A DNA stretch of 64,000 bases. It comes from Tubulanus polymorphus (taxonomy: Eukaryota > Animalia > Nemertea). The stretch covers positions 6,498,275 through 6,562,274 of the forward strand of contig NC_134032.1 in assembly GCF_964204645.1 (NCBI RefSeq), given 5' to 3'. The notes beneath the pieces were generated by a model. It saw only the letters and a list, made by a program, of their open reading frames with translations. It was not told the origin of the DNA and did no database searches. Below, piece by piece: positions 4,577-39,265 of the stretch. Position 1 is the stretch's first letter, and each line of letters begins with the position of its first letter. Position numbers and translations under genes: made by a program.

Positions 4577-5023
4577 GGTTATGGGCCCAGGGCACCAGCT
4601 GGACGCTATGGTCGACTTAATTACGATGGGGATGAAAGAAAATACGAACAATGGGAGGCAAAGTTTTTGGCATATATGAAAATACAAAAACTTAAAGCGG
4701 TAATTACCCAAGAAGCGGAAATTGATGATACGGACCTGGATTTAGTCGACAAAAATGAACAGGCGTACGCAGAGCTCATACAGCTACTTGACGACAGGAG
4801 TCTGAGCCTGGTAATGCGTGAAGCTGCAGATGACGGTCGAAAAGCATTAGCGATTCTGCAACGTCATTACCAAAATGAGGGAAAACCGAGGATCATTTCT
4901 CTTTATACGGAACTGACCTCACTAGTCATGAAGCCAAGTGAAAGTGTGACGGACTATATAATCCGCGCAGAAACGGCAGCAACAGCTTTAAAACCTGCCA
5001 AGGAGAACATAAGCGATAGCTTA
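4556..5023 (+). pseudogene. gag: Copia gag N-terminal part, interrupted by the gypsy insertion
   Basis: YEQWEAKFLAYM..AYAELIQLLDDRSLSLV..DDGRKAL. Removing 5024-10384 rejoins ISDSL|LIAMVLKGLP in frame. Confidence 0.92.
4577..4590 (+). promoter_or_regulatory. Copia primer-binding site (internal/half tRNA-iMet type)
   Basis: GGTTATGGGCCCAG directly after the LTR, the PBS type used by Drosophila copia. Confidence 0.85.
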
Positions 5024-5496
5024 TGTTACGGATGAAACTCCAGGGCCGAAATACCCAATTCTTTTTCGGATCCAAGCTCCAGGGTCGAACTAAAACCCAT
5101 AAAACTAACGACGACACCAGACGTATAATATTACAAAGCACGTACATTTATTAAAGTACTGTGGCTGGGACTCACTGAGGTCAGTAAACAGATATTTATA
5201 TAGGTACAGTTTATAGGGGTAAGTCAAGTATAAACACTGAATGATTCACACTTATAACAGACTGAAGTCAGTATACCATATAAACACTATACATACCATA
5301 ACTATTCAATAACTGGGTAACACAACTGGGTAACACCCTCACCCTTAAAAGATTCAGAGATGTATTTCTAGAAAACATATATGTACATACATTCTACAAA
5401 ATTCGACAAAAATACAAACAAACACATATTTAATCTTCAGATCATAACAATTCGGAATATTTCAACAATACATTACACATTAATTATTACATGATA

Positions 5497-9825: not shown

Positions 9826-10046
9826 TCTACGAATTAATGTAGCTTCCGTTTCTCCGGCCTCATTTTCTGTCTTCTCAGGAATCGCCTGCTGCTTTTAAAC
9901 GTCGCTTAAAAGACCAGATTTGACGCAATGTTCTTTATAAAACAGCACAGATAACAACATAAGTACTGCAAAAACTTTTCCTCGTTTCATTGGTTCTGCC
10001 ACAAACACGTCCAAATGTGCAAAAAGTCGTCTTCAAAGTCCGTGGC

Positions 10047-10063
10047 TCCCGGACGAGCCCCCA
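10047..10063 (-). promoter_or_regulatory. PBS complementary to tRNA-Pro
   Basis: Minus strand reads TGGGGGCTCGTCCGGGA, 5 nt after the 5' LTR. Confidence 0.9.
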
Positions 10064-10384
10064 ATTTCTGTTACGGATGAAACTCCAGGGCCGAAATACC
10101 CAATTCTTTTTCGGATCCAAGCTCCAGGGTCGAACTAAAACCCATAAAACTAACGACGACACCAGACGTATAATATTACAAAGCACGTACATTTATTAAA
10201 GTACTGTGGCTGGGACTCACTGAGGTCAGTAAACAGATATTTATATAGGTACAGTTTATAGGGGTAAGTCAAGTATAAACACCGAATGATTCACACTTAT
10301 AACAGACTGAAGTCAGTATACCATATAAACACTATACATACCATAACTATTCAATAACTGGGTAACACAACTGGGTAACACTTA

Positions 10385-12650
10385 TTAATCGCGATGGTCC
10401 TAAAAGGTTTGCCGGATAGTTATAAACCTTTTGTGGCGATAATCACGCAGAAAGACGATGCCCAAACGTTCTTGGACTTTAAAAACGCCCTCAGAAGATT
10501 TGAGGAGACCGAAAAAGCGAGGAAAGATACGGCAGAATCATCAGATGATCATGTGATGAAAAACAGAAGTTTTCCCGCCAAAAATGTCAAGGACAGTCAA
10601 AATAGCGGGAATAGTAGTGGCCCTAAGTGTTTCAGATGTGGAAAGATTGGGCATTACAAAAAGGACTGCTACGCAAAATATTGTTCTACATGTAAGTCCA
10701 ATACCCATAGTGATGAAAATTGTCGCGCACAAAACCGCGGGAAAAACAACGGTCGAAAAGATAGATTTCATCGAGCGAAAGATGACGCCCGATCATCAGA
10801 TGACGACGGTAACGAACATTCATTCTCATTTCTATATAAAGCTGGGTGTGATTATAGAAAAATTCCTGATGTGAAATCTCAAAATATGCACATCCCGGTG
10901 AATGAAGATGCCCTGAAATCGTGTTCGAGCCGAAAGAAGAATTCAGATGATATGTTGGTGGATTGTGGAGCTACGTCTCATATACTTACGGACTTTGGAT
11001 TATTCACGAAATTTAATGAAACATTTGTGCCGGAAAAACACACAATTGAACTGGCTAATGGAGAGCGCTCAACAAATGTGGCCGAAAAATGTGGAGATGC
11101 AGTAATTAATTTAAAAAACTCTGACGGAATAAACGTGAAATTCGAACTCAAAGATGCTCTGTATGTCCCGATATATCCGCAGGACATTCTATCCGTTCGC
11201 GCTGTGACAAAAGAAGGAGCAACAGTCACATTCCGTCCCGAGAATGCAAATCTCAAGTTCAAAGGTAACATTTTTAACATTCATATGTCAGATAGATTGT
11301 ATTATCTTAGTACTGTGGATCAAAATGATTGTGATTATGTTAGCATCACTCGTGACCTTCAAAGTTGGCACGAGGTCTTAGGTCATTGTAATTATGAAGA
11401 TGTAATTTCATTAGAGCATGTAGTCGATGGTATGAAAATCAAAGGTGTCACAAAAATCCCCGATGGTTGTATTGTGTGTACTATGGGAAAGCAAACGTGT
11501 GGTCGGAGTAGAGAGGCAAGGGCTAAATCCAAAGCTCCCCTAGATTTAGTGCATACTGATTTGGCAGGGCCAATTGAACCGGTATCCACTGAGGGATTCA
11601 AGTATGCGATTTCCTTTACTGACGACTATTCAGGGGCTGTGTCTGTATATTTCCTAAAAGCAAAAAGTAACACGACTGAGGCTACGGAAAAATTCCTGGC
11701 TGACATGGCACCCTTTGGTAAGGTAAAAAGGTTGAGATCAGACAGAGGGTCAGAATTTCTGTCTAATTCATTCAAGTCACTTATGAGTAGAAATCGCATA
11801 AGACACGATACCAGCGCCCCCTATAGTCCTCATCAAAATGGTGTTAGTGAAAGGCATTGGAGAACACTATTCTCTATGGGTAGATGCCTGTTACTTCAGT
11901 CTGAGCTGCCAAAAGAAATGTGGCCGTATGCAGTTATGGCGGCAGGTTATATTAGAAACAGGTGCTACAATAACCGGTTGAAAAAGACACCATTTCAAGC
12001 AGTCACAGGTAGAAAACCTAATGTGTCAAATATACAATCTTTTGGGTGCAGGTGTTTTGCCTACCAACAAAAGAAAACCAAGTTAGACTCAAGATGTGTT
12101 GAAGGTATTTTTGTAGGATATGATAAAAACAGCCCATCATATCTGGTGTATTTTCCTGAGACAAAGTTCTGAGGTACAGGGTTGTGAAGTTTCACACCAA
12201 GAAGTTTGTAGAACAACAAACACAAACAGGTGCACATGATGATGATGTTTCTTTATGTGAGTTTCCAATAATCAAATCTGACACAAATAGCAGCTCAAAT
12301 GGTTCCAAAGTTCAACCACAATTAACAATTGTCAGTAACCAAGGGACCAGTAACTCACATGATGAAACTGATGAGTCGAGATACCCCAGGCGTGAGAGAA
12401 AGCCTCCTGCTTATCTAAATGACAATATACGTGATTCAGATTTAGAAAGTTCATGTAACGATGACCATATGTTATTTGTATCGAACTCAAATTTAGATTA
12501 TTTGTGTAAGACTAAAGTTCACCCTGTGAACTATAGTGAGGCAATAGCATCCCCTGAGGCACAGCAGTGGCACGAGGCAATGAAGGAAGAGATTAAATCC
12601 TTAAAAGAGAATGACACATACTCTTTATGTAAATTGCCAGAGGGTAAACA
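10385..12650 (+). pseudogene. pol: Copia gag C-terminus (two zinc knuckles), protease, integrase and start of RT
   Basis: CFRCGKIGHYKKDC, VDCGATSH, WHEVLGH..CIVC, HTDLAGP, SDRGSEF, NGVSER. Frameshift near 12165-12172. Confidence 0.93.
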
Positions 12651-13500
12651 ACAGTTAATAGTTTTTATTATCTTTATATATGTATAATACTGACTGAAAC
12701 CATGGCATTTAAAGACTAGTATCAAATGACTACATCATCACAATATGATAGATTGAGAATTGCAGACTTGAACCTGTTCCAGTTAACATTTCATACGTAG
12801 ATCAATCAAAACAACCCCAGGATAGAACGAGCTCATATTCACTTAACTTTAATCTCATTTCTCACTTTGATTTAATGTTTACAATTGATTGCTTTTCAAC
12901 TGAAACGATGGGTAGATCTTAGGAAGGAGCAATATTTACTAAAAACAAATCAGTTTAATATTTATAAACGCCTGAGATAAATAAATAAGTATACCCTAAA
13001 ACATCAACTTTACAGATCTAGGAAAATAATGTACATCAGATAAAAATGCCCCCCCCCTCCCCAAAGATTTGAATAAGACATACAGCAGACTGCACTCAAG
13101 TCTTATCTAATGATTTCAAGAGATAATTCGGGTGTTTTTTGAAATAGTTTTGTGACTGTAAAAATGGAATAGATAACATTAACTTTGATAAACCACCAGT
13201 CTGTTGGCAGTCCTAAAAGGTCCGACTTGAGTAGAGTCTACTGACTGTACTTCAATGCGGTGGTACAACCAACAAATATTCATCCTATCATTCATTATAA
13301 TAAATAATATCACAATATAATATTTTCATCTATCAATTAAAATGTTGTCAATCTCGGTTTATTTCTCGTACGACGTCGTCCCAATATTTCATGAATGTTT
13401 CACTACCTGATACGCCATCTTTTAACATACGATCAACAGCTTTAGCTCGGTCCATTCCGGACCAGAAATCTTCCTTCCAATCTATTACGTTCCTGTCATT
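12651..13500 (-). other. 850-bp non-copia insert resembling the 3' end of a cellular mRNA (coding end plus 3' UTR), antisense to the copia
   Basis: Flanked by direct repeat GTAAACA (12644-12650, 13501-13507). Minus strand starts in the open frame NDRNVIDWKEDFWSGMDRAKAVDRMLKDGVSGSETFMKYWDDVVREINRD* and has AATAAA 13 nt before its end. Confidence 0.6.
13083..13247. mobile_element. Tc1/mariner-type MITE inside the 850-bp insert
   Basis: TA|CAGCAGACTGCACTCAAGTC ... GACTTGAGTAGAGTCTACTG(ACTG)|TA. Confidence 0.55.
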
Positions 13501-14910
13501 GTAAACATGCTGTGGGGGGTAGATGGGTTTACACAGTCAAAACAAAACCTGATGGATCAGAGCTGTATAAGGCAAGATATGTAGCCAAGGGCTATAGTCA
13601 AAGGGGTTGATTACAAGGAGACTTTTTCTCCTACTGCTAAACTCACATCTGTTAGAATCCTTATGCAATTAGCAGCTCAAAACAATTTGAAACTTGAACA
13701 AATGGATGTTAAAACAGCATACTTGAACGCCCCTATCGACTGTGAGTTGTACATGGAACAGCCAGAGGGCTTCAGTGTAAAATCAAAAAGTGGTGATAAG
13801 TTGTATTATAAGCTCAACAAATCTCTGTATGGTCTAAAACAAAGCGGCAGAAATTGGAATAACTTGCTCCATGATCATTTGATAAACCATGGGTTTGACC
13901 AAGGTTTAGTTGACCAATGCCTGTATATAAAATATGTAAATAATGAAATGGTGATTATGTTAGTATGGGTCGATGACGTCCTAATTGGTGCAAGTAGAGA
14001 TGATTTAATGTTTAAAACTAAACAAATGCTGAGCGACAGATTTAAAATGAAAGACCTGGGGAATATCTCCTGGTTCTTAGGCATTGAATTCGAGCAGGGT
14101 GACGGTGAAATAACAATGAGTCAGAAAATGTACATAAACAAAATCCTTGAAAAATTCCAAATGTCTGATTGCAAACCAAGAAAGACCCCATGTGAACAAA
14201 AACTGTCATTTAATGAAAATGCGGAGCGATACGACGCTAAGAAATATAGGGAGTGCATTGGTAGTTTGATTTATGCAATGACTTGTACTAGACCAGATAT
14301 TAGCTATGTAGTAACCAAACTATCACAATATTTATCAAACCCAACAGTTGAACACTGGACGGCAGCAAAGCATGTGCTCCGATATTTGAAAGGTACTAGT
14401 GATTACAAATTAGTGTATAGAAAGGATGAAAATGGGTTAAAACTCTCAGGTTATAGCGATGCAGACTGGGCATCATCTGCTGATGATAGGAAGAGTGTTA
14501 CGGGTTATTGTTTCAGTTTATCTGACCAGAGTGCATTGATATCCTGGAAATGTAGGAAACAGCCTACGGTAGCTTTGTCTTCGTGCGAATCAGAATATAT
14601 GGCTTTAGCGGCGGCCACTAAAGAAGCTCTGTACTTATCCCAATTTCTAACTGAAATTGACCCCAACGGTAGCTACGCCCCAGTCACATTGTACGAGGAC
14701 AACCAAGGCACTATCGCACTGGCCAAAAACCCCATCAATCATCAGCGCTCTAAACATATCGACATACGATATCATTTTATTCGTACAGAGCAAAACAATG
14801 GCAAAATTGAAATCATGTATTGTCCTACGGAACGAATGATAGCTGATGTTCTGACAAAGCCAGCAACAGATTTTAAGTTGAGAGAGTTTCATCCAAATAT
14901 TTTTGGTTAG
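13501..14910 (+). pseudogene. pol: Copia reverse transcriptase and RNase H
   Basis: RWVYTVK..YKARYVAKGYSQ, frameshift near 13600, then QMDVKTAYLNA, SLYGLKQSGRNW, WVDD, YSDADWA, EDNQG, KHIDIRYH, ADVLTK. Confidence 0.95.
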
Positions 14911-15228
14911 AAAAACTGCTTTGTTAAAAGTGTACCATTAAACGGCATGTAAACATTGATGCTACACCCACAATGCTTATAAACACGAAAGCACGTGTTT
15001 ACTGTGTATAGGGATTTTGTAAATATTGTCAATTATAGTATGCATGGTAATAGCGAACATTTTAAAGAGTAGAATATTGACCATTTATGATAGATGATTT
15101 AACCAATTACAGATGATTAGTTTTTAATATTTATCTGACGCAAAAGTTAGATTGCCAGATAATGAATATGTTATGAAATATGAGTTCTATGTATTTTAAT
15201 AATCTATCAATTGAGAATCATGTGGGGG

Positions 15229-15461
15229 TGTTGAGTTATGTTCTCAATTTACTCATCTTAGTGTGAGAGATTGTTTATTGTTTATATACCGGGTGGATGC
15301 TGCATGTAACCAAGACACACATCTGTTTGTAATTATTCTTGCATCTCTTTGTATTGTGGTTAAATAAAGATTAGTACGAGTCAGATAGTCAACGAAAGAA
15401 GACGTGTTATAGTTTCTCTGCTCAAGGATTTTCCCCCATCATGGAAGGACAAAACCCAACA
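15229..15461 (+). repeat. Copia 3' LTR
   Basis: Identical to 4344-4576; followed by TSD ACAAC. Confidence 0.97.
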
Positions 15462-22007: not shown

Positions 22008-23330
22008 CGATTTAGATGCTCTAGTCACCCGCTACCAATTGAAACTGGTAGATACCAAAACATACCAAGGGACGATCGCTTATGTACCAAATGTAACCTA
22101 AACAAAATTGGTGACGAATTCCATTATGTGTTTTGGAATGCAATTACGTACTTTTGCATTTGTGAAATGTGTACCAACACGTTTTTCGTTGTACCTAGAT
22201 GAGTTAGCCTCAAAAATTAAATCTCTAGGCGTGGAGGTCAATGATATTAGGTTGTCAATCCTTCTCTATGCCGATGATATTGTCCTAATAGCAGAAGATG
22301 AACACTCATTACAAGTACCTATAAATGAACTAATGGAATGGTGCAAAAAATGGAAACTGACTGTAAATCTTGAAAAGTCCAAAATAATGCACTTTAGAAA
22401 GAAATCTGCTCCACTTACCAACTTTCAATTCAAACTGGAGGACAAAACTATTGAAATTGTAAATGTATATAGATACTTAGGTGTAGAATTCAATGAATAT
22501 TTAGATTTTAGTTATACGGCTGATGCCCTTGCTAAAGCTTCTAGCAAAGCACTAGGTAAATTCCTTTGTAAACATTTTAATTCAAGTAGTCTTTCACATA
22601 AAACCTATAGTAAAATATATAATGCAACTACGGTCCCAATTATGGATTATGGAAGTGCTGTATGGGGACTCAAGAACTATGAGTGCTGTAAAAAAGTTCA
22701 ATTTAGAGCCATGCGCTCATTCCTGGGAACAGGAAAACACTCTTCGTTATTGAGTATCGAAGGTGATATGGGCTGGACTCCTGTATTTATTAGGCATCGA
22801 GTAGAAACGTTAAGATTATGGTTTCGTCTATGTAACATGTCTGATGATAGGATAACCAAAAAAATATTTTTACATGACTATCAAAACTCCATAAGTGGTT
22901 ATGAAAACTGGTGTAATCATGTTAAGTTGATTTTGACGGAATGTCAGATGGAATATTTTTATTTACATCCCGAATTAAGCTCTTTAAACGACATGGCTAT
23001 AAAAAAGGTTCTTTTAGATGCAAAGAAAATTATGTTCAGAAGTTATTCCATTGCCTGGTCGAGAAACATAGGTTCACAGGAGAAACTAAGAACTTATAGA
23101 TTACTTAAAAACACGTTTGGTACTGAAGACTATGTCAAATTCAACCTGAGTAGAGGAAACCGCTCTTTGATCGCTAGAATGAGAAATGGTACTTACCCTC
23201 TTAATATAGAATTAGGAAGGTATAGAAGTTTCCCTTAGCATTGCGTGTCTGTAGTATGTGTAATAAAAATGAAATAGAATCCGAACTACATTTTCTTTGT
23301 GAGTGTAACGCATATCATGATTTAAGAAAT
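22008..23330 (+). mobile_element. CR1/L2-group LINE fragments (RT C-terminal half and C-terminal Cys/His motif)
   Basis: LLYADDIVL, YRYLGV, LNIELGRY..CSMC..ESELHFLCEC; preceded by a second 3' fragment LPIETGRY..CTKC..DEFH. Confidence 0.88.
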
Positions 23331-23747
23331 GGGAACCAACAACCACCACTGAGAAGGCAGGGTTTAAACCCCATCCTTTGTGTAAGACTATCCATCAACG
23401 CCGATTACAAATCGTTTCTCGAGAACATGATAAAACAGGTCACGACAGGTACTATACCGGAATTTAAACTACAATTAAATATACGAGTTAGCGGGTATCT
23501 TACAGAATCAATTATTTTCTTAACTATGTTTACAGATATACCATCAGCACCAGCGTCTTTGCTGCATCGGGGTGAGTCGGGAAAAAGAAAAAGTTTTCAT
23601 TCACTGGATCTGACAGATTTTCACTGAAGAGGACACCTGTCTCTGGTAATTGATTGGCTAGGTTGCTGCCAATATTTACAAAGAAAGAATTAAATTCATT
23701 AGCAATATTTTCGTAGCCATCAACATTGATGCCGTTCCTCTTGAAAG

Positions 23748-24959
23748 TATGGTGGCTGATAAGGGCCATGAAAATATTTCATGATGAAAAAATTATTTCG
23801 TCATGAAAAATAAATTACTATCGAAAAATATTCGTGAGTGAAAATAATTTCATGAAAAATAATTTTCCATCGAAAAGTATTTCTTGAGTGTAAAATGATT
23901 TTGTTATGAAAATAATTTTCTATCGAAAAATATTTCGCGAGTGAAAATAATTTCGGTGTGAAAAAATAAATCGCCTTCGAAATATATTTTGTGAGTGAAA
24001 ATATTTCCATCAGAAATATTTTCCTATGTCTAAAAATATCTGCTGTAAAAATAATTTCGGGTTTTCACGTTTTTGCGCGCTCTATATCGATTGCGCTACA
24101 ACTAGGGCGCAGCAGTGTTTGTACCGTTAAGTATGTAGTGTGTATGTAGTGTGTTGAACGGGACATCAAGTATAAAAAGATGTCTTAGTTTTTGATCCTA
24201 CGGCTACAGCAACTTGTATTTTGGCCCTTTTTATTGATCGGCGGAGTCCACTACATTGGCCAAAATATTTATTTCTTGATGGACACTAGGATGTTGATGG
24301 AGGTGTGAGGAGGAATCACTATCAAGAGCCCTAATTTTGTTTTTGTCTGTACAAAATTGTTGATATTTTTGGCCCTAATTGTGTTCACATGGACCCGATG
24401 TCAGCACCACCATCCCACCCTTCCTAACGTTAGGTCACAAGGACTCGACGACATTTTTAGGATCAAAACCAAAGCTCTACCCATGTACCCTGATTCATGT
24501 GTGAATGAGAGCCGTGTGGTATCCCCTATGATATGCACGCTGTTTGTACCACGAGAGGGCTAGAAGCATAGATGAAATAAGATCAGGTATATACGGTTCA
24601 ACCGACAAGCGCGCACGCGTGCGCTAGCGGAAAACCCCTCAATTATTTTTACACTGCAAAAATATTTTAGTCGTCGGAATATATTTTGAAGGAAGGCGAT
24701 TTATTTTTCATTGCGGAATTATTTTTACTCAGCATATGTTTTGAAGGGAAGAAAATTATTTTTGCTTACGAATATATTTTGATGGAAATTTATTTTTCAC
24801 AGCGGAAATTATTCTTACTCACGAAATATTTTTCGATGGAAATTTATTTTTCATGAAATTATTCTGACTCACGAAATAATTTTTGATGGAAATTTATTTT
24901 TCATGACTAAATAATTTTTTCATAGTGAAATATTTTCATGGCCCTTATCAGCCACCATA
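23748..24959. mobile_element. Non-autonomous IS3EU-like TIR element
   Basis: Perfect 34-bp terminal IR TATGGTGGCTGATAAGGGCCATGAAAATATTTCA, ~300 bp of AT-rich subrepeats in each arm, near-6-bp TSD TGAAAG/TGAAAT. TAYGG ends with 6-bp TSDs fit IS3EU. Confidence 0.7.
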
Positions 24960-25516: not shown

Positions 25517-26077
25517 CTACGCAATGATTTTCTGTATAAGCGATTTTTGTGTTCAATACATTTCAATAATCAAGTTGATAACCACGGTTTATGTAATTTA
25601 TTTTCGTGTACTTTATGGGGAGATAAAAAAGGAAAACATTCCTTATGTAATTCGATGAATTTAGTATTAAATGCGCTATATGAAAGTTGCGGGTCTGCAT
25701 TACTATAGATATCCGACTGATCAATGGCCAAGAGAGCTCGATTGAATTTCGAAATCTTACGTTTACAATAGTTTCTATTCGAATTCACCTGTTGTGCTCA
25801 ACATGACTACAGACGGTAAAAATAGGAAAATGATATGAAATATCGGTACAAATAATTTTAAATTAAAGATTTATAAAAGAGTTTTCATTATCTGGCTATT
25901 TCATTTGCTGTGCGTCTATGGTCATTCTAGGTTACAGTGCAGTAACCAAATGCGTGCGATACATAGGATCAGACCCCAGTTACCTTTATTGAAAAAAAAA
26001 TCATTTATTTTTCAAAATTTCTCGAATAGCGTTTTCTGCTCGATTAAAAAAGCGCAGGATATTCCGCCATATGCATC

Positions 26078-26695
26078 TGTCACTAACGGGATCTTTGAAT
26101 TCCACTTGAGTGATAGAATGTTAACAAACGTCCACGAATAAACGAGTCGCAACACACAGAGTTCCTGTCTTCAAAATTACTTTTATTTCACGAACCGATC
26201 TCAACGATCTAAAAATTTCTAGCGGTCTCCTCCACGGTCCAAAAACCCCAGTATATATAGTCAATTCTCCAACCCATCTCATTAGCGAACGACATTGCCA
26301 AAGCCCGTTAATTTGTCGTTAGCGCAACAGCGTTGCCCATAAAAATATCATTATTCAACCGAAATAATTACAAAAGGACATTATACGTGACAGTTTCCCA
26401 TAAAAATGTAACATTAACTTTGAATTATGTTCTTCAGCGGCAGTCGTTGCTCGCAGAAGCAAATACTTACGAACAACTGACGCGCATTAGTCGTAATTTT
26501 CCTAAGGTTCAATCTCAGTACAAAAAGTTATATGAAAGCTGACGCTGGAACAAAGTTCGAAAGTTTTATCACGAAAGATGGCACTGTTGAATGAGTTGGA
26601 TAATGAATGCGGAATAGTTTATGATATCGTTAGAAGATGGCAGCACTGCCTATGAATTGAGACTGCTGTTGAAACTCAATAATACCACTGTCACA
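26078..26695 (-). repeat. 3' LTR of the env-gypsy
   Basis: No difference from 36379-36996 found by eye. Confidence 0.96.
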
Positions 26696-27854
26696 TATAC
26701 CCCCCTTCCGCAAAGGCCCTGTCCTCAGGGACTAGAATTGGATAATACAAATACATGTTAAATGTTAAGTAAAAAGTGACATTAGGTCATCATGACATGA
26801 GACAGGAAAAAAAAAAAAAAATTTCCATTCATTGATACAACTACAACACCATTATGTAAAACATTAACATCCGATAATAATGGTTGCTTGGATACAGAGT
26901 CATAAATCTTGACTAATGGCCCTTAAGAGTAGCAAGCATCATACCGGCGCGCAACGGCAGATACAGCATACGCCATGGATTACAAGCGACCAACACAACC
27001 GTACAAACGGTAAGTAATTATTTTCTTATACATTATACTTATATGTTTAAAATGAACAATATCTATAAGAATATAAGATGAAATCCACAATCCATGTGCA
27101 TAATATATAACAGTAGGTATCATTAAACGAAAATAGGTGAACACAGCACACTATACCAAGACATTAAACACATCACAAAGAATGTTTTTTTTTTTTTTAA
27201 CACATATACGTTATACACCTACATCATTATATACCGTAAATACCAATAACCATACATGATTATAAGAGACACTATCAATTAGATATCTAATACAAGCCAT
27301 TAAATGTAAGCATTACAGATATAACTTCATAATCACTACCATATCACACGCACATCCTCAAACATCAATTTAATTTCATTACAATAATCACACTACAATT
27401 TACGTACATACGTAACTTTTAATCTAAAAGCAGCCTACATCAGAGTCACGTAAGAGGTTACTAGCACATTACGTGAAGGCCGAACGGGTCATCCGCACCC
27501 AGCCTCTCAAAACACTTCCGCACCGCAAGAGCTCTGATGCTGCCTAAACGCTCGCCTAGATAAATACAATATTCAACATATAATATCATTTCATATTCCA
27601 CTACAATTTATTCACTCAAGTAAAATACGCAGGCCTGACTTACACTATTACAAACATACAATCGAAATCGAGTACTCATTGCGCCTCTTCATTATAATAT
27701 GCCTCTTACTATGACAAATATATTTATTTATCATCCATTATTATCCATTTCATATCATCGTCTAATTATCGAATTCATACATATAGACATTATCGCCTAT
27801 ATCGAAATCATCCCCCCTCCCAAAAATGTACGGAATGAACCTCTCTATAACATC

Positions 27855-30547
27855 TTAAGGTCTTGATAACAACGAGGGGTACAGTAAATTGATGCCCCTC
27901 TGGGGTACTAATGGATTCGGAACACTCGGTGGCGAAGGAACCCGCGGGGATATAGCCGGAATGTTTCTATTAGTGGCTGCTTCGTGAGCCGCAATCTCGG
28001 CCTCCCAATCAGAATCATTGTTTCTGCGGAGCCTTCCGAGGCACCGTTCCTTTTTCACGGCCGGATCCCTCAGGAAATCCGCAATGCCTTTGACTGGAAT
28101 CCTCGCTCCATTAAATTCAATCCAAAAAAACTGGCAAAAATCCTCCGCTAGGATCCTCCTTACAGAACTAAATTTAAGCCAAGGAATTGTGACCTTCGAA
28201 GGCAAATCCATCACCTTCTGGCCATCCACTATAACCTCACTGTACATCGAAAATCTAAGTAATAGCGAAAAAGGACCATACAACCCCACTATTTCTGGAT
28301 CTGGCAACATAAGACAAGAATATTCTATCTCTGTCGGATGATATGGACAATCGCCCAACGGTATCATAATCGACTCATTAACATTACAGATCTCTAAATA
28401 AATAACACAATGTAAATCAGAACGGTCAACACTACTCCACGGAGAGCAACATCTCAGGATCGCGCGAATCAACCGAACGATATCCATGATCAAGACGCGT
28501 AAGACTAGAAAGGAACCCAAAACAAATATAACTTCCAACATGGGAATATCTGAAAGGTCAAATCGTTCGGTCACTACTTTAACTAAAACCGTTTCGTTGG
28601 CACCCCTATCAAGAGAATCCAGCGTTAGTTCATACGATTTATTTGAAACAACGGTAAATGCCTTCGCTAGAGGCATGGCAGATGCCACCGCCATCATCCC
28701 CAAAACCTTCCTGGTTTTAATGAAGATAAAAAGACACAAAAGCATGCTAGCCGATGACAGAGCGATGGCCACTATATTTAAGACACCTGGTGTATCGGAA
28801 ATTGTCCATTCGAAGTCTTCGCGAGACTCGTCTGACTTAGCGGCCAAAGCATCCGCCTTCGATGCATACATAGCGGTGTCATTCTTAATGTGATATACCA
28901 TCCGTTTAAAATCCAAAGAAAACTTCTTATCTTTATCAACTAGACCGGACCAGTTAGCCATGTTTAACTTAAAATGAGGGAGTTCCGTTTTTATAGGATC
29001 TGTAACCGTAGTGCCCCCAAAAATATTATCTAGCTGTTCCCGGTTATAAATTTGTGATACCACCGGAAGATTCATGCTATAATATTTTACAGGTGCGACA
29101 TCACCCGCACAAGCCGTAATTCGTGGGCTAAGTTCAAAAGTATTAGACGTTAATCGGCACTTGCACGGCACTGATAACAAACAAAACAAACAACTTTTAA
29201 TTGCTTGGACTGGTTTCCCTGGACAGGTTAAATCCCATGTCGCTGGCTTTCCCGACATCAAATATAAACTGTCTTTGACCTGCACTGCGCCTTCGAACAA
29301 CGCAGACGTCGGCTCGTATCTGATATCACACAATTGCGATACCAACTTAGGCTCGTCCCTATAAATCGCCAATGCACAACTGGGAATATTTCGCGACTTC
29401 ATCGACATCGCAGTCGAACAAGATTTCAGATATTTTCCTGAGCAAGATGAATAGAATTTGGACGAAAGCTCAGTATAAAACTGGCCATCGTCAGTTATAC
29501 CAAAATAATCAGGTAACCCAGTTAACAACGTACTGCGAGTCGACGAGGAATTGCAAGGTACAGGAAAAGCCATCACGTTGTATAAGCCGAAGAAGGCGTT
29601 GGTCGAGGATAATGGGATATTAATTGTTATATACAAATTATTGTCTGTCTTAGTGAATACAATATCTTGGGCCTGATAATAAAACCCTAACTCGTTATGC
29701 TGGATGGTGAAACCAACAAATTTGGCCTGTAACTCCTCTCGCACGTGTTGCAAAACCCTTTTTAAATCTTTTGGGGATACAAACTTCATGGGTAGATAGC
29801 CCTCTAAAAGAGTCTGAGTTGCCAAAAGCCATTGTTGTGTGGTACGTGTTAAATCTATCATGGACTGATAGTCAAACATTAATTGTTTGATAACTAGTAA
29901 AATTAATCTATTGTAATAATTTTGGTTTTGAAAATTAGACGCAACATCTTTCGCCAACTGGTCCATATTTCTAGAGTTATTCTTTACCCCAGCGACGACG
30001 TTGGTTATGCGAGCATCCGCAGATGACATGTACGAAGTCAGGTCGTCTGAAATCGTTTTTATTTGTTTCGTATTTAGCTTAGCCATATTTTCCACGTCAG
30101 TGATGTGCTTCGAAAGCTTTGCGAGATCCTCATCGGTCGCTAAGCCAAAGAGGTTTTTCATGAACTTTCCCATAAACGGGGCTAAAGCTCTCTTCGGGCG
30201 TCTCGACTTGGTTATCTCGGCTTTAGTTATAGTTACCGGAATGAGATCTTTAATCGTATTAATATCTTTGACTATCTGACCAACCAATTCATTATGGTGA
30301 TCCCTCATAGATGACATCAAATTGGAACCGACCTTACACAGTTCATCCCCGCCTTTATGAAAATCACAGTCCGGAATTACGGCCTTATATTTCGGCACTT
30401 GCAAAAAGGGGACTACAAAGGTGTGCTTCCACGCACTCGCACCATTGTCCACCACACCGATTTTTTGAAGTAACACGCCATATCCTGGGCGTATTACGGT
30501 GTCGGTCGCTAACGATCCCTGGATAAGAATCATAACTAGTGTGGTCC
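27855..30547 (-). CDS. env: Env: class I (F-type) fusion glycoprotein with a long C-terminal extension
   Basis: Signal-like N-terminus, furin site RRPKR|ALAPFMGKFMKNLFGLA (30189-30203), heptad repeats, Cys-rich domain, TM helix, then further hydrophobic segments. Confidence 0.9.
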
Positions 30548-30597
30548 CTGAAAAAGTACAGGACACATGATGAGTACAACGTGCTTAGAAATTGGAA

Positions 30598-33500
30598 CTA
30601 CTTCCGTCGTTTGTCCTTTCCTTGCTTCCGAAATATCTCCAAGGGCGTTTTATCAATAAAACTATCTTCGAATTCCCATGTGCAATCCTTCATGCCATAA
30701 CCCTTCCATTTGACTAGAAATTGTTCATTGCCCCCTTTGTTAAAACGCGATTTCAAGATCTTTTCTACCGTATAGATATCATCTTCATCTTCCAAATTAT
30801 CCCCGGAATCATCAGAATCGGATTGACCCCTCTCATCCGCTTCGGGGTCAGGTAACGATTCGTTCTTATCTGATGGTAAATCGACTGGTCTGTCCCTTGG
30901 GTCTACGTATAATTTCATTCGATTACAGTGAACTATTTTCGGAATATCATTACTCTTTCTCGTATGAGCGAGTTTATAATTCACTGGCGAAGTCTGCTGT
31001 AATATCTTATAAGGTCCTAAATAGTGGTGCACGAATTTCTTACAATGTCCTTTCGGGACGAAAGGGTTGTAAAGCCAAACTAATTGACCGACTTGAAAAT
31101 CCGGTTCCTTACTACCCCGATCATAATAGCCTTTCATACGCGCTTGCGCTTTTTCGATATTCTGTCTAGCTATCTCATGAACGACCTTGATCTTGCTCAC
31201 AACATTATCATAATATTCTTTATAGGAACCTGTCAAATCGGGTGTAGTAGAGAGCAAGGTCACATCGATCGGCAAAACTGCCTTCCTGCCATAAATCAAT
31301 TCAAACGGCGAATATCCAGTGGATTCGCAAATAGACGCGTTATGAGCAAACGTGATGCTTGGAAGGAAATCTGGCCAATCTCTATGATGTTTATCCGTAT
31401 ATTGAGACAGACTGTTGCAAATATTTTTGTTGCCTCGCTCAACTAAACCATCCGCTTGGGGATGATATGCAGACGTTCTGATTTTAGACGCGTTGCATAA
31501 TTTGCATAATTCGTGTATCAATTTCGCGTTGAAATTCGCACCTTGATCTGTTAATAAAGTTTTAAAACACGAATGTACGCAAACTATTTTATCAAATATG
31601 ACTCGAGCGATTGTGATAGCGTCGATTTCTTTTAATGCAAATGTGTGTGTCCATTTGGTTAAATATTCAGTACACACTAATATATACTGGTACCCTTCGT
31701 ATGATTTCTTCAAGGGCCCTAATATATCCATAGCTATTCTATCAAACGGTCCACCTACTTTGATGGGAATCAATGGCGCTTTAGCTGATTTTGGAGGTTT
31801 CTTCCTCGTAGCACAATCTTCACAACTTTTAACCCAATAATCTATGTCTTTATACATACTATTCCAAAAGTATCTCTGTCTCGCTTTATGCAAGGTACGT
31901 GAAATGCCAAAATGCCCACTCAGTGTATCGTCGTGTAGCGCATAAAGTATTTCTGATCTTAATGGTTTCGGAATTACTAATTGATGACAGACGTTCGCCC
32001 CATTTACCCATAAATGATGCAGAACACCGTTTTCATCCAGATAGTAATCTGGACTAGATATAACGATCTTTCTAGCATATTTATCGACCTCTGGTAGTTC
32101 TTCCTTTAATAAATAATTAATCATCGGACGCAAATCATCATCTTCCATTTGCATCTGTAAAAGTTCCTCTGGTTGTAAGGTTATATTCTCATCTATAGTG
32201 CCCTTAGGGTCTACCCCATCTCTTTGAGGTATCTCCTCATTACCACCATCAGTATCATGTTCCTGAGTATTAGGAATATTTTTAGGAGTCTCTAAAGCAT
32301 AGAGACCACTAGTTCCTAGTTGTAGGTTCATTCCGTTCATTCCATTGCGTGTATTATATTTCCCCTGTACATTTTCATTGATCCCTATTTCAGTTTCATT
32401 TATCTCTTCTTCATTTTTATTTATCCCCATGGGGTACAAGGTGTCTGTGTCACGTCCAGCGTTGACCACAGCCTTGCAATCATTTTCATTGGAGCTATTA
32501 CTCATTAATATATCCTCAGCGCTTAATTCATTATTATTATTAGTTATCATTACGCGTGCGTCATCGCGCGCGTTATAGGCATCAGGAGGCGATTCAAAAG
32601 ATAAGGAAAAACCCTTATTGTTAATATCAATAATATCATCTACACATCCACACTGAAAATTACAAGTACAAGTTTTACAATCATTTGTTTTTTCATTCAT
32701 TTTACCACCAATTTCAATTTGAAACGGATATCCATCCTCGTTACTACCAATAATTGTTGGGATTGAATATACCGGTCTCGACAAAGCGTCTGCATTTAAA
32801 TGTTTCTTCCCCGCTCTATGAACAATATCAAAATCATACTGAGACAATTTCATTGCCCAGCGAGCTAAACGACCGTTCGGATCTTTCATAGTCATTAGCC
32901 ATTTCAAGGCACTATGATCCGTAACTACTTCAAATTTCTGGCCATACAAATAGGGCTCGTATTTCTTCACACCATAAACTACCGCTAAACATTCTTTCTC
33001 ACTGACAGTATAGTTTTGTTCGGCTTTATTGAATAATCGAGTCCCATAGCATATAACTCGCTCTGGGTCTTTTCCTTGAGAAAGAACGAATCCAACGCTA
33101 TAATTGCTAGCGTCAGTGTATAATATGAATTTTTCATTGAAATTTGGATATGCTAAGACTGGAGCTGTAGTCAAAATTTGTTTGCATTTTTCGAATGCCT
33201 GTTGACATTCCTCGGTCCAATTAAAAGGTTTACCCTTCTGAGTTAAAGCCGTGAGAGGTCTGATTATTTCGGAGAAACCCTTCACAAAAGCCCGATAATA
33301 GGACACAAGCCCAACAAAACTACGTATCTGCTTAACTGTTTTAGGGGCTTTGTAGTTGACAACAGCCGAAATTTTTTCGGGGTCAACCTTAACACCTTCC
33401 GGTGTAACAATATGACCTAAGAATTTCAATTCTTTCTTCCCAAATTCGCATTTTCTAGACTTCAGCCTTAAGCCAGCCTGTCTAAGTCTTTCGAAAATTC

Positions 33501-35145
33501 GCCTTAAGTTATCCAAATGATTTTGCCAACTGGAGCCAAAACATATTATGTCATCTAAATATACAAGACATATATCGTACGTTAGTCTGTGTAAAACCCT
33601 TGACATTAATCTAGAAAATACTGCAGGGCTAATACTACATCCCATAGGTAGAACAGTATACCGATATAAACCACGCGGTGTTATGAAACTAGTATAATCC
33701 CGACTCTGAGGATCAATTTCGATCTGATGAAAACCCGAGAAAAGATCTAAACTGCTATAAATAACCGGCTTTTTCTGACCTAACTTACTCAATAATGAAT
33801 CAATTAATGGAAGTGGATAATGATCTTTACGCATTCGAGAATTCAAGGCTCTAAAATCTACAACGAACCGATATGTAGAGTCCTTCTTCTTAACCAGAAT
33901 ACAAGGACTACTCCATTCGGACGATGATTCTTCAATCAATTTCATTTCCATCATGTCGTCTAATTGTTTTTCTAATTCCGTTTCTAAAACAGGAGCCAAT
34001 CGATAGGGTCGTGATTTAATTGGTGGCCCTTCAATTTCAATTTTTGGTGTAATTAGATTTGTACGGCCAATTTCTCGAATATTATTAGCAAAAACGTCCC
34101 TGAATTCCATGCATAAATTCATTAACTCACTTTTCTGTACATCAGTTAAATCTGAATCTTCTAAATCGATATCAGGACTACCCTGTAATTCATCAGCGGA
34201 TAAAAACGGTTTAGCGGTCTGTTTGATTTCCAAACCATTCACTGTTACAATTTGATTCGACGAATCTACTTTCGATTCTCCATTATTTCCGCTACATATA
34301 TCAAAAGCAGGTTTTCCTTTATCACCAAATTGTGGCAAGAAAAATGCTAATTTTTGTTCCGAATGAATAATTATATCATCATCAGTGCAATTCAACACGA
34401 GCATCGGTACTGTATTAGCCGTTACTGTGCATAATGATTTACCAACCAATAATTGATCATGGTATTTGTGCAATAAACCAGGATATCCCTCTATCATTCC
34501 AGTGGTTCCGTCTGGAAGTGATTCACATAATTTAACCGGTAGAATAACTTGTGATAATTTTGGAATAGATAAATCAGTCATTACTTTCAATTTTACAGCA
34601 CCACACATATTATGGATTCCGTTTATAGCAACCGAAGTCTCACCCTTTATGAAAATTCGTTTGTCTTCAAAACTAATCAAAACTTTATATTTTTCCAGAA
34701 AATCTACACCTAAGATAATATCTTGAACCAATCCTGGAACCACATAGAATTCGTGAGAAAATGGTTTCCCGGAGACCTCGATCGTTAATTCTACAATACC
34801 AGCCAAGCGAAATGAATCACCCTTGACAGTGTGCGCATTTGCATATTTTCCTGGAATTAGCGAAGGCTTTTCATTCAATGAATCATACAGTGATTGGCTA
34901 ATACAACTAACACACGCGCCAGTATCAACAAGGAAACTGGTGGAATTACCATGAATCTTTCCAGGAACTGCTAATGCAACAGTTGCTAAAATTGGAATAG
35001 AATTAATAGTCTGATCGTTTGTACTGGAAGTAAAGCCTGGAAATATTTCGTTCTTTATCAGTTTACTCTTACCACAATGAGATGGGGATTTAATTTCTAA
35101 TGGCTCGGAATCATCCCCTAAAATCCGGGCCTGGGGTTGTTTCCC
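30598..35145 (-). CDS. pol: Pol (PR, RT, RNase H, IN, chromodomain), expressed by -1 frameshift
   Basis: The frame is open from the GGGAAAC site. FLVDTGA lies upstream of the listed ORF start; also YLDD, TDASN, HHCC, DILGP/TDQG/VERGN, GPY, and YTVEKIL..FLVKWKGY..TWE. Confidence 0.95.
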   Translation of the reverse strand, partial: GKQPQARILGDDSEPLEIKSPSHCGKSKLIKNEIFPGFTSSTNDQTINSIPILATVALAVPGKIHGNSTSFLVDTGACVSCISQSLYDSLNEKPSLIPGKYANAHTVKGDSFRLAGIVELTIEVSGKPFSHEFYVVPGLVQDIILGVDFLEKYKVLISFEDKRIFIKGETSVAINGIHNMCGAVKLKVMTDLSIPKLSQVILPVKLCESLPDGTTGMIEGYPGLLHKYHDQLLVGKSLCTVTANTVPMLVLNCTDDDIIIHSEQKLAFFLPQFGDKGKPAFDICSGNNGESKVDSSNQIVTVNGLEIKQTAKPFLSADELQGSPDIDLEDSDLTDVQKSELMNLCMEFRDVFANNIREIGRTNLITPKIEIEGPPIKSRPYRLAPVLETELEKQLDDMMEMKLIEESSSEWSSPCILVKKKDSTYRFVVDFRALNSRMRKDHYPLPLIDSLLSKLGQKKPVIYSSLDLFSGFHQIEIDPQSRDYTSFITPRGLYRYTVLPMGCSISPAVFSRLMSRVLHRLTYDICLVYLDDIICFGSSWQNHLDNLRRIFERLRQAGLRLKSRKCEFGKKELKFLGHIVTPEGVKVDPEKISAVVNYKAPKTVKQIRSFVGLVSYYRAFVKGFSEIIRPLTALTQKGKPFNWTEECQQAFEKCKQILTTAPVLAYPNFNEKFILYTDASNYSVGFVLSQGKDPERVICYGTRLFNKAEQNYTVSEKECLAVVYGVKKYEPYLYGQKFEVVTDHSALKWLMTMKDPNGRLARWAMKLSQYDFDIVHRAGKKHLNADALSRPVYSIPTIIGSNEDGYPFQIEIGGKMNEKTNDCKTCTCNFQCGCVDDIIDINNKGFSLSFESPPDAYNARDDARVMITNNNNELSAEDILMSNSSNENDCKAVVNAGRDTDTLYPMGINKNEEEINETEIGINENVQGKYNTRNGMNGMNLQLGTSGLYALETPKNIPNTQEHDTDGGNEEIPQRDGVDPKGTIDENITLQPEELLQMQMEDDDLRPMINYLLKEELPEVDKYARKIVISSPDYYLDENGVLHHLWVNGANVCHQLVIPKPLRSEILYALHDDTLSGHFGISRTLHKARQRYFWNSMYKDIDYWVKSCEDCATRKKPPKSAKAPLIPIKVGGPFDRIAMDILGPLKKSYEGYQYILVCTEYLTKWTHTFALKEIDAITIARVIFDKIVCVHSCFKTLLTDQGANFNAKLIHELCKLCNASKIRTSAYHPQADGLVERGNKNICNSLSQYTDKHHRDWPDFLPSITFAHNASICESTGYSPFELIYGRKAVLPIDVTLLSTTPDLTGSYKEYYDNVVSKIKVVHEIARQNIEKAQARMKGYYDRGSKEPDFQVGQLVWLYNPFVPKGHCKKFVHHYLGPYKILQQTSPVNYKLAHTRKSNDIPKIVHCNRMKLYVDPRDRPVDLPSDKNESLPDPEADERGQSDSDDSGDNLEDEDDIYTVEKILKSRFNKGGNEQFLVKWKGYGMKDCTWEFEDSFIDKTPLEIFRKQGKDKRRK

Positions 35146-36083
35146 GGCCTGAATCTATTAGGATTGTCGTTGGAACGATTACCGAAATTATTGTTAGAAT
35201 TATTAAACCGTCTATCCGGCCGATAACTACCGTTCTGCCTAAAACAATTACGTTCGTGATGCCCAACTCGATTGCATCTACCACAAACTACAGATCCGGA
35301 AGCAGATCTGAAATTTCGTGGCGGCAGGTTATTATCCTGCCTCCGGACCTGTACCTGAAGTCTCGAGACTTCCCGGCTTAAATTCCTGATTTCATCCCTG
35401 AGATCCGAAATTTCATTTCGGTTCTCAGTGGATGGTATGATGCCGGCAATTGGAGGCGGTTTCGCCTGCAGCGCCAACACGGATTCATACAAGCGCGCGT
35501 ATTGTTCGGCTTCGTCCATAGTTTTTGGTGATCTAGATACGACAAACGCTCTCAAATTGTCAGCCAAGCCATTGATAAATAGGACCATTAAATCATGATC
35601 GTTCTTTTCAAGAGCCGCCGAACGTATTTGGATGTCTTGAAGATAGACGTCCAACGATTCCCCCGGTAATTGTTTTCTGTTCATTAAACTTTGCTCACGC
35701 ACCCATTTCATTGATCCAGAATCGAATTTCTTTTTGAATTCCCTTTCAAAGTTGTCAATATCTGATAAGATACTATTCGCCGTTGTCTTAACGGTTGCGT
35801 CTTTTGACTTGCTTGCCTCGACCACGGTCCAATACCAAGCCGAAGCAAGTCCATCTAAAAACAGCCCCACTGCTTTAAGTTTCTTTTCATTGGTCCAGCC
35901 CATGAAAGTAGAATATTGGGTGAACCGCCGCCACCAAATATTAGCGTCTTCGCTTACCGTACCGGTAAACTGTGGCGGTTGTAGACGAGTCATGCCCATT
36001 GGCTTATCGTCAATTTTGGCTGTCATTTCAGCTAGTCTATCTGCCAATGCGCGGTCCATTCCAGACCTCGTTTCGACCGGCAT
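35118..36083 (-). CDS. gag: Gag (retrotrans_gag capsid, coiled coil, CCHC knuckle)
   Basis: PPQFTG..WWRRF, KQLPGESLDVY, LFINGL, CGRCNRVGHHERNC; ATG at 36083. Confidence 0.93.
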   Translation of the reverse strand: MPVETRSGMDRALADRLAEMTAKIDDKPMGMTRLQPPQFTGTVSEDANIWWRRFTQYSTFMGWTNEKKLKAVGLFLDGLASAWYWTVVEASKSKDATVKTTANSILSDIDNFEREFKKKFDSGSMKWVREQSLMNRKQLPGESLDVYLQDIQIRSAALEKNDHDLMVLFINGLADNLRAFVVSRSPKTMDEAEQYARLYESVLALQAKPPPIAGIIPSTENRNEISDLRDEIRNLSREVSRLQVQVRRQDNNLPPRNFRSASGSVVCGRCNRVGHHERNCFRQNGSYRPDRRFNNSNNNFGNRSNDNPNRFRPGNNPRPGF

Positions 36084-36354
36084 ACACAAATTCAATCAAA
36101 TAATTTCTAGGTTCTTCAATATTAAGTCAATTAAATGTACGATAGACCGAAGGAGACAGCAAAATATTCGGTCTATCCACAGAAAATTGTTCTACGCACA
36201 CGACGAAATCAAAATCAAATAACAAGTATTGTTCAATATTTACCAAAATCCATTTTCCGTGCGTTTCTCGAGTTCCTACTTCCTGTATTGTTCCAGTGAA
36301 TTATCTTTGTTTCCGTTGGTTTTGTTAAATAGCTCGATACCTCACTCAAGTAAA

Positions 36355-36376
36355 ATGCCCGCCAGGTTCTCCACCA
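36355..36376 (-). promoter_or_regulatory. PBS, tRNA-Ala-like, with a bulge
   Basis: TGGTGGAGAA-CCTG-GCGGGCAT compared with the tRNA-Ala complement TGGTGGAGAATGCGGGCAT. Confidence 0.7.
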
Positions 36377-36378
36377 TT

Positions 36379-36996
36379 TGTCACTAACGGGATCTTTGAA
36401 TTCCACTTGAGTGATAGAATGTTAACAAACGTCCACGAATAAACGAGTCGCAACACACAGAGTTCCTGTCTTCAAAATTACTTTTATTTCACGAACCGAT
36501 CTCAACGATCTAAAAATTTCTAGCGGTCTCCTCCACGGTCCAAAAACCCCAGTATATATAGTCAATTCTCCAACCCATCTCATTAGCGAACGACATTGCC
36601 AAAGCCCGTTAATTTGTCGTTAGCGCAACAGCGTTGCCCATAAAAATATCATTATTCAACCGAAATAATTACAAAAGGACATTATACGTGACAGTTTCCC
36701 ATAAAAATGTAACATTAACTTTGAATTATGTTCTTCAGCGGCAGTCGTTGCTCGCAGAAGCAAATACTTACGAACAACTGACGCGCATTAGTCGTAATTT
36801 TCCTAAGGTTCAATCTCAGTACAAAAAGTTATATGAAAGCTGACGCTGGAACAAAGTTCGAAAGTTTTATCACGAAAGATGGCACTGTTGAATGAGTTGG
36901 ATAATGAATGCGGAATAGTTTATGATATCGTTAGAAGATGGCAGCACTGCCTATGAATTGAGACTGCTGTTGAAACTCAATAATACCACTGTCACA
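36379..36996 (-). repeat. 5' LTR of the env-gypsy
   Basis: TG...CA, followed on the minus strand by the PBS. Confidence 0.96.
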
Positions 36997-38266
36997 CATC
37001 GACGTATTTAAATATGGCGGACTTTTCTGCACCTTTAAAAACACAAATATGGCTGTAAAAAGGAAAATAAGAAATTAATTCATGTCCGCACATGACGCCG
37101 TCGTAGAATTCGTAAAGTTTTCTATACTCGCTTCGCCAGCGAACTCGAGGCTTCCCCTTCCCGCTACCTGTACAGCAAAACCGTATTTCCATCAATATAT
37201 TTCATCAATGATCAAAATCAATATGCGGAAAATTTTGAAATGACATCTTACGAAATGGCCTCGAGCGAAATTATGATAGAAAAAAAACATAGATTTTTAT
37301 TCGTTTAAACTTTGAAAACAAAAAACTCGAATCGATAAGAGATATCGTTGTCAAAGTTCTACTCACTCATTCGCCCGAGGCTTTGCTACGTATTGCGCAT
37401 CGGATTTTCACAGCGTTCTTCGAGCCGATCGCGATTTCGCATCGTCGTTTCGAAAATAGGTTTCTTTTCGAAAGTTTCCGACGATTGCCAGAAAGCAATT
37501 CATTCAATTTCGAGACTATATCGCGATAATTCGAAGCACTTCGTCGTTGTTACCGACAGCCGCGGGGTGCGACGCAGGGCTAGCGGCGTTTTTGTGAAAG
37601 CAAGGCGAACGCAGCCGTATAAATCGAGGAACACGACGTTTTAACTTATATATTTAGACGCACTTTGTCAGCACTTTTTTCTATCGTTGTCGATTCGTTG
37701 TTTACGACTTCTACCATTGTTTCAAAAGTCTTTCGAATCGCACTTTGTTAACTCACGCACACACATGATCGCTCGTGCGCCCGAAATTGATTTGTTGGCT
37801 GGCTGTTTTGTTGTCTGCAATCTGCCTCGGAGTAATTGATGCGATGAATTGATATTCGCCTATAATCCGTGATCGAAACGCCAATTCGTGTCTTCAAGAA
37901 TTCTTACCATTCTTGAAGTCGTGATGCATCTGGGTGTAAGCCGCGTCGAAAGTCGAGACGCGGGTAAGGGAATATCCTAACCTTCAGATTTTCACCGAGA
38001 AATAGGCCGGTTTAGGCAGTAAAGGACCAGCGAGTGACACAGAAGATTGTATCTCAACTACCGAAATATATTCAGTCTTACACAATCTCACCTCTCGATA
38101 TCGAGAACGAATATATCTTTGTGCATAGTGCGACTGACATTGACCCCCTCCCCCGAAAAAAATTGAAAACAGAAGCCGAGAAGTCGGGATTCGAACACCG
38201 CGAGTAACTACATCGCTAACTGTTCGGTTCTTTTCGGTAGAGTTCTTCCACGGCTTTCGTTTTGCG

Positions 38267-39265
38267 ATGTCCCAGAATCTATCCACGCCGATCGGGCGTC
38301 CATACAATAGCTACATAGCCTTGATGTCGCTGCTGGGCAAATACGGCGCCTGGCGCGCGTTCGCCGTGGCCATGTCGGTCGCACTGTTTTCGCTGGGCGC
38401 GTTCGGTAACGTGGCCACGGTGCTCATCATGTCGCGCCCTCGTTTTCGGCGCCTTTCCTACGCCAACTACCTGATCCCGCTGGCCGTATGCGACGGCGTT
38501 TACATTATCAGCCCGACTCTGATGCCTTTGGTGCAATACTTGTTGAACGAAGTGACCAGCGGCCCGGTGGCAATTTTCAACACGCTCGCCGGCTGTCAGA
38601 TTTACGAGTTCATTGTCGGTCTGGGCCCGTTCACCGGCTCGTGGCTGATCGTGGCTATATCGTTAGAACGCCTGGCCGTCGTGCTGTTCCCGTTCGCGGC
38701 GCGGCGCGTGTGCACGGCTAGATTCGCACGCTCGATCGTGCTGGTAGTCCTACTCGCGAACATCGTCGTATCTTACTACGTAGAAGTAGTCTACATGCGG
38801 TTTCGCGACGCCGACGAAGGCTGTTTCATGGAGCTGTCGCGCCAGCGCGTTCTGTTCTCGTTCATCGTCTCGTACTGCTATATCGTACCCTTAACCGTGG
38901 TGATTGCCGCCAACGCCGTTACCGTGGCTTGCCTGTCGATCAGTGGGCGGGTCGCGTCGCCGAGTGTGACAACCGACGCCGGCGCGAAAACCATCGCGCG
39001 TACCAGGCGTACGACGGTGATGTTGGTCACCGTCTCATTGCTATTCGCTGCATGCACGATGCCGTCGACGGTCGTCACGCTGCTGCCCGTCGGCGATTTG
39101 ACGATCCTGCTGGACGTATTGTCGCAGCTTGTCGCCTGTAATTACGCCGCGAACTTCTACGTGTACGTTTTGCTCGGTAAAGACATCAGGGCGTATTTCG
39201 TCGCCAAACTCGCAGCCGTGTGTTGCTACTGTGGCGGGCGGGCGTCGGCGAAACGCGAGATTTAA
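38267..39265 (+). CDS. Intronless class A (rhodopsin-like) GPCR, peptide-receptor-like
   Basis: Seven hydrophobic segments; GN (TM1), LAVCD (TM2), C..ISLERL (TM3), FAACTMP (TM6), NYAANFYVY (TM7); GC-rich codons. Confidence 0.9.
   Translation: MSQNLSTPIGRPYNSYIALMSLLGKYGAWRAFAVAMSVALFSLGAFGNVATVLIMSRPRFRRLSYANYLIPLAVCDGVYIISPTLMPLVQYLLNEVTSGPVAIFNTLAGCQIYEFIVGLGPFTGSWLIVAISLERLAVVLFPFAARRVCTARFARSIVLVVLLANIVVSYYVEVVYMRFRDADEGCFMELSRQRVLFSFIVSYCYIVPLTVVIAANAVTVACLSISGRVASPSVTTDAGAKTIARTRRTTVMLVTVSLLFAACTMPSTVVTLLPVGDLTILLDVLSQLVACNYAANFYVYVLLGKDIRAYFVAKLAAVCCYCGGRASAKREI

Follow-up and report, generated by a model that had tools for sequence, protein, structure and literature searches.

A conserved second membrane module with a predicted matrix-like domain in the F-type env of a nemertean LTR retrotransposon

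Described systems and the element in Tubulanus polymorphus

The matrix (M) proteins of Mononegavirales are soluble, are encoded by a gene of their own and bind membranes peripherally; in VP40 the late motifs are located in a flexible arm, as they are in the env tail described here. To our knowledge, the mononegavirus matrix fold has so far been found in negative-strand RNA viruses. Chu-like viruses are RNA viruses with a different type of glycoprotein. The polyproteins of alphaviruses, flaviviruses and bunyaviruses, as well as P42 of influenza C virus, are characterized by a TM followed by a short basic loop and an internal signal, with the downstream membrane protein set free by signal peptidase; those known to us yield class II fusogens or other products and possess no mononegavirus-type matrix domain.

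The F-type "ancient errantiviruses" (Chary and Hayashi, eLife, PMC13524379) share with the element studied here the gag-pol-env order, the LTRs and an F-type env with a furin site, and a chromodomain-bearing clade has been reported from Cnidaria, Mollusca and Annelida in the available text of the same work. According to that text, the env analyzed there was cut to the ectodomain between the signal peptide and the TM, unlike in our study; the words "matrix" and "cytoplasmic" do not occur in its main text, and its figure supplements could show the extension. In Carbovirus the matrix gene directly follows the glycoprotein gene (gene order G-M), but in contrast to the env described here the two are separate ORFs, no TM anchor is reported, and late motifs are noted in P (PMC5834213, available portions). 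Foamy viruses (PMC7828637) and Drosophila gypsy (PMC3383448) resemble our element in having a Gag without a membrane-targeting signal: as stated in the accessible parts of these papers, foamy virus budding is strictly Env-dependent, gypsy Gag is not myristoylated, and the use of ESCRT by errantiviruses is unknown. Foamy viruses differ by the use of an N-terminal Env leader, and Drosophila env-F differs by ending in a TM and a cytoplasmic tail; a matrix-fold domain is reported for neither of them in those parts. No matrix domain in a retrotransposon env or in a chu-like glycoprotein is mentioned in the available text of PMC5408684, 10.1101/2024.12.15.628590, PMC12583693, PMC5834213, PMC4402516, 10.1101/2024.11.25.625296, PMC3383448, PMC7828637 and PMC12992720, and a full-text literature search, whose scope excludes most subscription journals, returned no paper on such a domain in either kind of protein.

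The window, i.e. the whole stretch of 64,000 nt of T. polymorphus contig NC_134032.1 that was analyzed, contains an intact minus-strand LTR retrotransposon bearing env (Table 1). Its two LTRs are identical at 618/618 nt, the 4-bp target duplication CATC flanks both ends, and the DNA data contain the empty-site joint 26073-36997, together with many variant positions in the retrotransposon region, which fits a multicopy family. The features by which errantiviruses are recognized are present: gag, pol and env are all intact ORFs flanked by LTRs, and Pol has the order RT, RNase H, integrase. Judged by its sequence, the element fits the F-type errantiviruses in the operational sense of PMC13524379. 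Gag matches the Pfam families Retrotrans_gag (E 4e-05) and Ty3_capsid (E 0.008). Pol comprises, in order, a protease-like motif recognized by eye, a weak dUTPase-like stretch, RT, RNase H, integrase and a chromodomain (Pfam positions in the ATG-started part: 239-401 for RT, 464-591 for RNase H, 879-1050 for integrase and 1279-1319 for the chromodomain). The env mRNA is probably spliced, as an acceptor-like site (30548-30549), found by eye, is in phase with a donor at 36243, 10 bases past an ATG at 36253.

Several other features of the element and its neighborhood deserve mention. The dUTPase-like match between protease and RT (34345-34590, minus strand) is weak, with E 0.001 under the Pfam cut-off; a dUTPase at this place is termed rare in retrotransposons in the available text of PMC5408684. 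The interval between RNase H and integrase contains an Asn/Glu-rich region of ~200 aa with a CxxCxC..CxC stretch (~32150-32750, minus strand), and the AT-rich stretch from the env stop to the 3' LTR (26696-27854) is devoid of long ORFs on the element strand. Elsewhere in the window we found nested direct-repeat pairs (4344/15229 and 5021/10066, spanning 4344-15461), possibly an LTR element within another, plus-strand ORFs at 22126-23627 that by eye resemble the RT region of a non-LTR retrotransposon, an intronless ORF of a rhodopsin-family GPCR (38267-39265, plus strand; 7tm_1, E 1.2e-13) 1.3 kb from the 5' LTR, and long inverted repeats of the kind found in non-autonomous DNA transposons (55642-57873 and 23748-24959).

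Table 1. Features of the retrotransposon and of its env, in window coordinates
Feature	Position	Strand	Remarks
5' LTR	36379..36996	-	618 nt, TG...CA ends
Primer-binding site	36358..36376	-	begins TGG, 2 bases past the 5' LTR; from sequence
gag	35118..36083	-	321 aa; Ty3-type capsid and a single CCHC knuckle
pol frame	30598..35154	-	open frame of 1518 aa, overlaps the end of gag
env ORF	27855..30533	-	892 aa from ATG; 909 aa stop to stop
F-type (class I) fusion ectodomain	28776..30533	-	Baculo_F match; furin-type RPKR at aa 112-115
TM1, F anchor	28719..28775	-	aa 587-605; hydropathy 2.65
KTRK and signal-peptide-like segment ending in AKA	28659..28718	-	aa 606-625; KTRK at 606
Predicted signal-peptidase site	before 28658	-	AxA ends at aa 625; F626 starts at 28658
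Predicted luminal spacer	28545..28658	-	aa 626-663
TM2	28476..28544	-	about aa 664-686; hydropathy 2.53; helix in the structure model
Beta-rich domain	28092..28418	-	aa 706-814, ~110 aa; predicted mononegavirus matrix fold
Variable Pro-rich tail	27858..28091	-	aa 815-892
LYPSL	27870-27884	-	env aa 884
3' LTR	26078..26695	-	purine-rich tract upstream; 1160 nt lie between it and the env stop

Env beyond the fusion protein

All motifs named in the first-pass annotation of this locus were located within the env ORF, and the length of 903 aa given there agrees with an upstream GTG start and not with the ATG. The N-terminal part of the protein is matched by Baculo_F (aa 66-439, E 4.5e-15, above the Pfam cut-off), and the profile of the env family matches a PDB "fusion protein" (9w4d, E 1e-19); the hydropathy scan revealed no hydrophobic peak of an N-terminal signal peptide at the env ATG. 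Instead of the single C-terminal TM and short tail of class I proteins, env has three hydrophobic segments, and TM1 is followed by another 287 aa; the last 281 aa are without a Pfam match. In a 19-aa Kyte-Doolittle window the peaks are at aa 587-605, 610-629 and 668-686.

A full HMMER scan returned 2303 relatives of env at E 0.001, the best 150 of which were analyzed. A profile of the domain, built from 92 relatives with at least 200 aa beyond query position 560 and with the query excluded, detects query aa 707-814 with an E value of 1.6e-12 and, at E <1e-5, recovers 90 of these best 150 relatives. Since 89 of the 90 belong to the training set, the score of the query is the main independent test, and it indicates that the extension after F is not a product of chance. 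The mean pairwise identity of the beta domain among the relatives is 19%, and conservation of the module at about this level across lineages rules out chance read-through of a lost stop codon. Of the other 60 among the best 150, 27 terminate shortly past TM1, 17 are fragments that lack TM1, and 16 have a partial or a different tail. In a FastTree phylogeny of 134 ectodomains (the 17 fragments were excluded), 22 of the 27 short forms (P0040, P0042, P0050 and 19 others), which stop within a few residues of TM1, form one clade with support 99, and the domain-bearing forms occupy the other deep branches; as this tree is unrooted, gain and loss of the module are indistinguishable. The alignments show that one layout is conserved across deep env lineages: TM1, basic residues, a short hydrophobic segment terminating in AxA, a spacer, TM2, basic residues, the beta domain, and a tail with YPxL or P[S/T]AP.

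Among the 89 domain-bearing relatives, the hydropathy of TM1 is at least 1.6 in 84, K/R follows TM1 in 85, and a hydrophobic core lies within the next ~18 residues in 80. The position equivalent to query residue 625 is occupied by A (59), S (19) or G (4), position 623 by A (37), T (15), V (15) or S (11), and position 624 is variable. The (-3,-1) rule of signal peptidase holds at the AxA site in 79 of 88 relatives and in at most 30 at any other position within 606-659, counts that carry the caveat that the aligner favors such columns; inside TM1 it holds in 34 relatives at 600 and in 56 at 596. The previously proposed AxA site is the sole position after TM1 (606-659) where most relatives obey the rule, and the conserved sequence pattern following TM1 is that of an internal signal peptide. 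Within TM1 itself (28746-28752, minus strand), small residues at aa 594 and 596, shared by 56 of the 89 relatives, constitute a possible helix-packing motif.

TM2 is present in 88/89 relatives, and a net positive stretch directly follows it in 88/89; the beta domain is therefore predicted to reside in the cytosol, as had been suggested before. The spacer has a median length of 30 aa in the relatives and 36% S/T/P, and is S/T/P-rich in most of them. The two sequons of the query spacer (aa 631 and 646), to which the first-pass annotation had drawn attention, did not turn out to be a conserved feature: one is found in 16 of the 89 relatives, and 19 were seen where shuffles predict 22.2. The CC pair at aa 695 is not among the columns conserved in at least 30% in the domain profile of the relatives.

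Predicted fold of the domain and motifs of the tail

The structure model of TM2 with the domain has a pLDDT of 84.9; a single-sequence fold of the tail region (pLDDT 36.9) was discarded. Both VIA searches ranked Borna M first among the structural matches, with modest fold scores, in line with the resemblance to bornavirus M that had been noticed by eye. According to the prediction, the domain would fold like the M proteins of Borna disease virus (3f1j), filoviruses (VP40) and paramyxo- and pneumoviruses, the single-domain Borna M being the closest; identity in the structural matches to mononegavirus matrix proteins is about 10%. Carbovirus M is also among the structural matches of the model. 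At the sequence level, a 50-sequence profile gave no PDB match at E 10, and Pfam assigned none of 50 domain members to a matrix family. The domain is basic in most relatives. We predict that it has the mononegavirus matrix fold, but do not file it as a mononegavirus M, because it is TM-anchored, has no sequence link to that family and shows a modest fold score; unlike those proteins, it lies in frame with env and is not a soluble product of its own gene.

A Foldseek search of BFVD with the same model yielded long chu-like glycoproteins as top matches (730-1235 aa, E 0.002-0.04), among them those of Shayang fly virus 1 and Taiyuan leafhopper virus, which suggests that these proteins may also carry a glycoprotein-matrix fusion. 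These matches, for example A0A0B5KT86, A0A455LK50 and A0A1L3KMZ8, are mostly 1040-1235 aa in length and provide a hint of such a hidden fusion. A word-index homology search returned no match for the tail region and one for the full env; the domain profile matched five longer proteins, four of them already known and one a new 936-aa Baculo_F protein; the Atlas comparison was uninformative (best scores 0.75 and 0.85), contig scans detected no locus matching env or its relative P0006, and a cluster look-up for 10 relatives gave no informative names.

YPxL binds ALIX and P[S/T]AP binds TSG101, and late motifs act in the cytosol only. Of the motifs earlier pointed out in the Pro-rich tail, LYPSL is present at aa 884, whereas PSPPSVP represents no canonical late motif; the motif scan found neither P[S/T]AP nor PPxY in this env copy. 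Among the 86 relatives with a complete domain (median post-domain tail of 27 aa), YPxL occurs in 22 tails (1000 shuffles: mean 0.62, maximum 4), the broader [LIMVFC]YPx(x)[LIVF] in 29, and P[S/T]AP in 14 (shuffles: mean 0.24, maximum 3), with PPxY being marginal (6 tails; shuffles: mean 0.82, maximum 6). At least one late motif is found in 37 of the tails and none in 49, and permuted decoy motifs score 0-4. YPxL is found 22 times in 2630 tail residues, but never in 9854 domain residues and 4 times in 46013 residues of the ectodomains. On the tree, the broader YP motif has a scattered distribution with 17 changes, and its carriers are at most 41% identical. LYPxL shows both conservation and strong enrichment, and YPxL as well as P[S/T]AP exhibit what is expected of an ESCRT late domain, i.e. 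location in a flexible tail at a frequency beyond chance. Both are described as ESCRT late domains in the available text of PMC5834213. The LYPSL of the tail is likely a budding signal. A true matrix domain is usually absent from gypsy Gag, as pointed out in the first-pass annotation, and in the 321 aa of the present Gag our scan detected neither an MG start nor any P[S/T]AP, PPxY or YPxL.

Alternative readings and implications

On balance, we consider it probable that env consists of an F-type fusogen and a conserved second module, likely released by signal peptidase and predicted to be a membrane-anchored matrix with a late motif. Cleavage by signal peptidase would yield a type I membrane protein, ~267 aa long, in a 1:1 ratio to F; F itself would retain TM1 and the spent signal. 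The domain of the released protein would form a layer on the inner face of the membrane, the protein would couple or gather F and the Gag capsid, and its tail would recruit ALIX or TSG101 (ESCRT) to pinch off the particle. The second module would thus take over the tasks that MA and p6 have within retroviral Gag, and complement a Gag without membrane or late signals.

It is unlikely, in our opinion, that the released second membrane protein has an unrelated beta fold and acts as an F chaperone, a trafficking adaptor or a host antagonist, with the YP motif serving in sorting or ubiquitin-linked turnover. Distinctly improbable is an uncleaved three-pass env with the cytosolic tail as a built-in matrix: membrane crossing by the middle segment is possible either way, each case leaving the domain in the cytosol, the spacer is short and cleavage is a prediction, but the middle segment is also short and weakly hydrophobic (1.59 as compared to 2.5-2.65 for the TMs), and its conserved -3 and -1 residues flank a variable -2 residue, as in signal peptides. 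We give very little credence to an extracellular domain, which would result if the middle segment did not cross the membrane and TM2 returned the chain to the lumen. The query does have sequons at aa 719 and 839, and sequons are not depleted in the domains of the relatives (77 seen, 70.2 expected), counts that leave the topology undecided; nevertheless, the charge following TM2, the restriction of late motifs to the cytosol and the conserved signal-like segment after TM1 all argue against a luminal location.

Our verdict is that env probably works like a glycoprotein-matrix polyprotein. As the module is predicted to be matrix-like and carries a likely budding signal, it is likely that these elements rely on an RNA-virus-style matrix, and not on Gag, to build and release their particles. 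The architecture of this env is apparently undescribed so far and common to a large lineage. A broader scenario, which we put forward tentatively and hold to fall somewhat short of probable, is that animal LTR retrotransposons of a widespread lineage carry a cassette of a fusogen and a TM-anchored late-domain matrix, homologous to the glycoprotein-matrix module of negative-strand RNA viruses. The fused layout would survive in long chu-like glycoproteins, and the retroelement module would have one ancestor in common with the matrix fold known from Borna, Ebola and measles viruses, possibly a glycoprotein-linked membrane protein that gave rise to free M genes.

It is an open question by what route env-carrying retrotransposons become enveloped and bud if neither a matrix domain nor a late motif is present in their Gag. 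For a large lineage outside the insects, a matrix-plus-late-domain module inside env offers an answer that is direct and can be tested. If true, it would place the mononegavirus matrix fold in reverse-transcribing elements beside an F-type fusogen, which suggests joint movement of fusogen and matrix as a single cassette, and it would indicate where to look for the matrix that some chu-like viruses seemingly lack.
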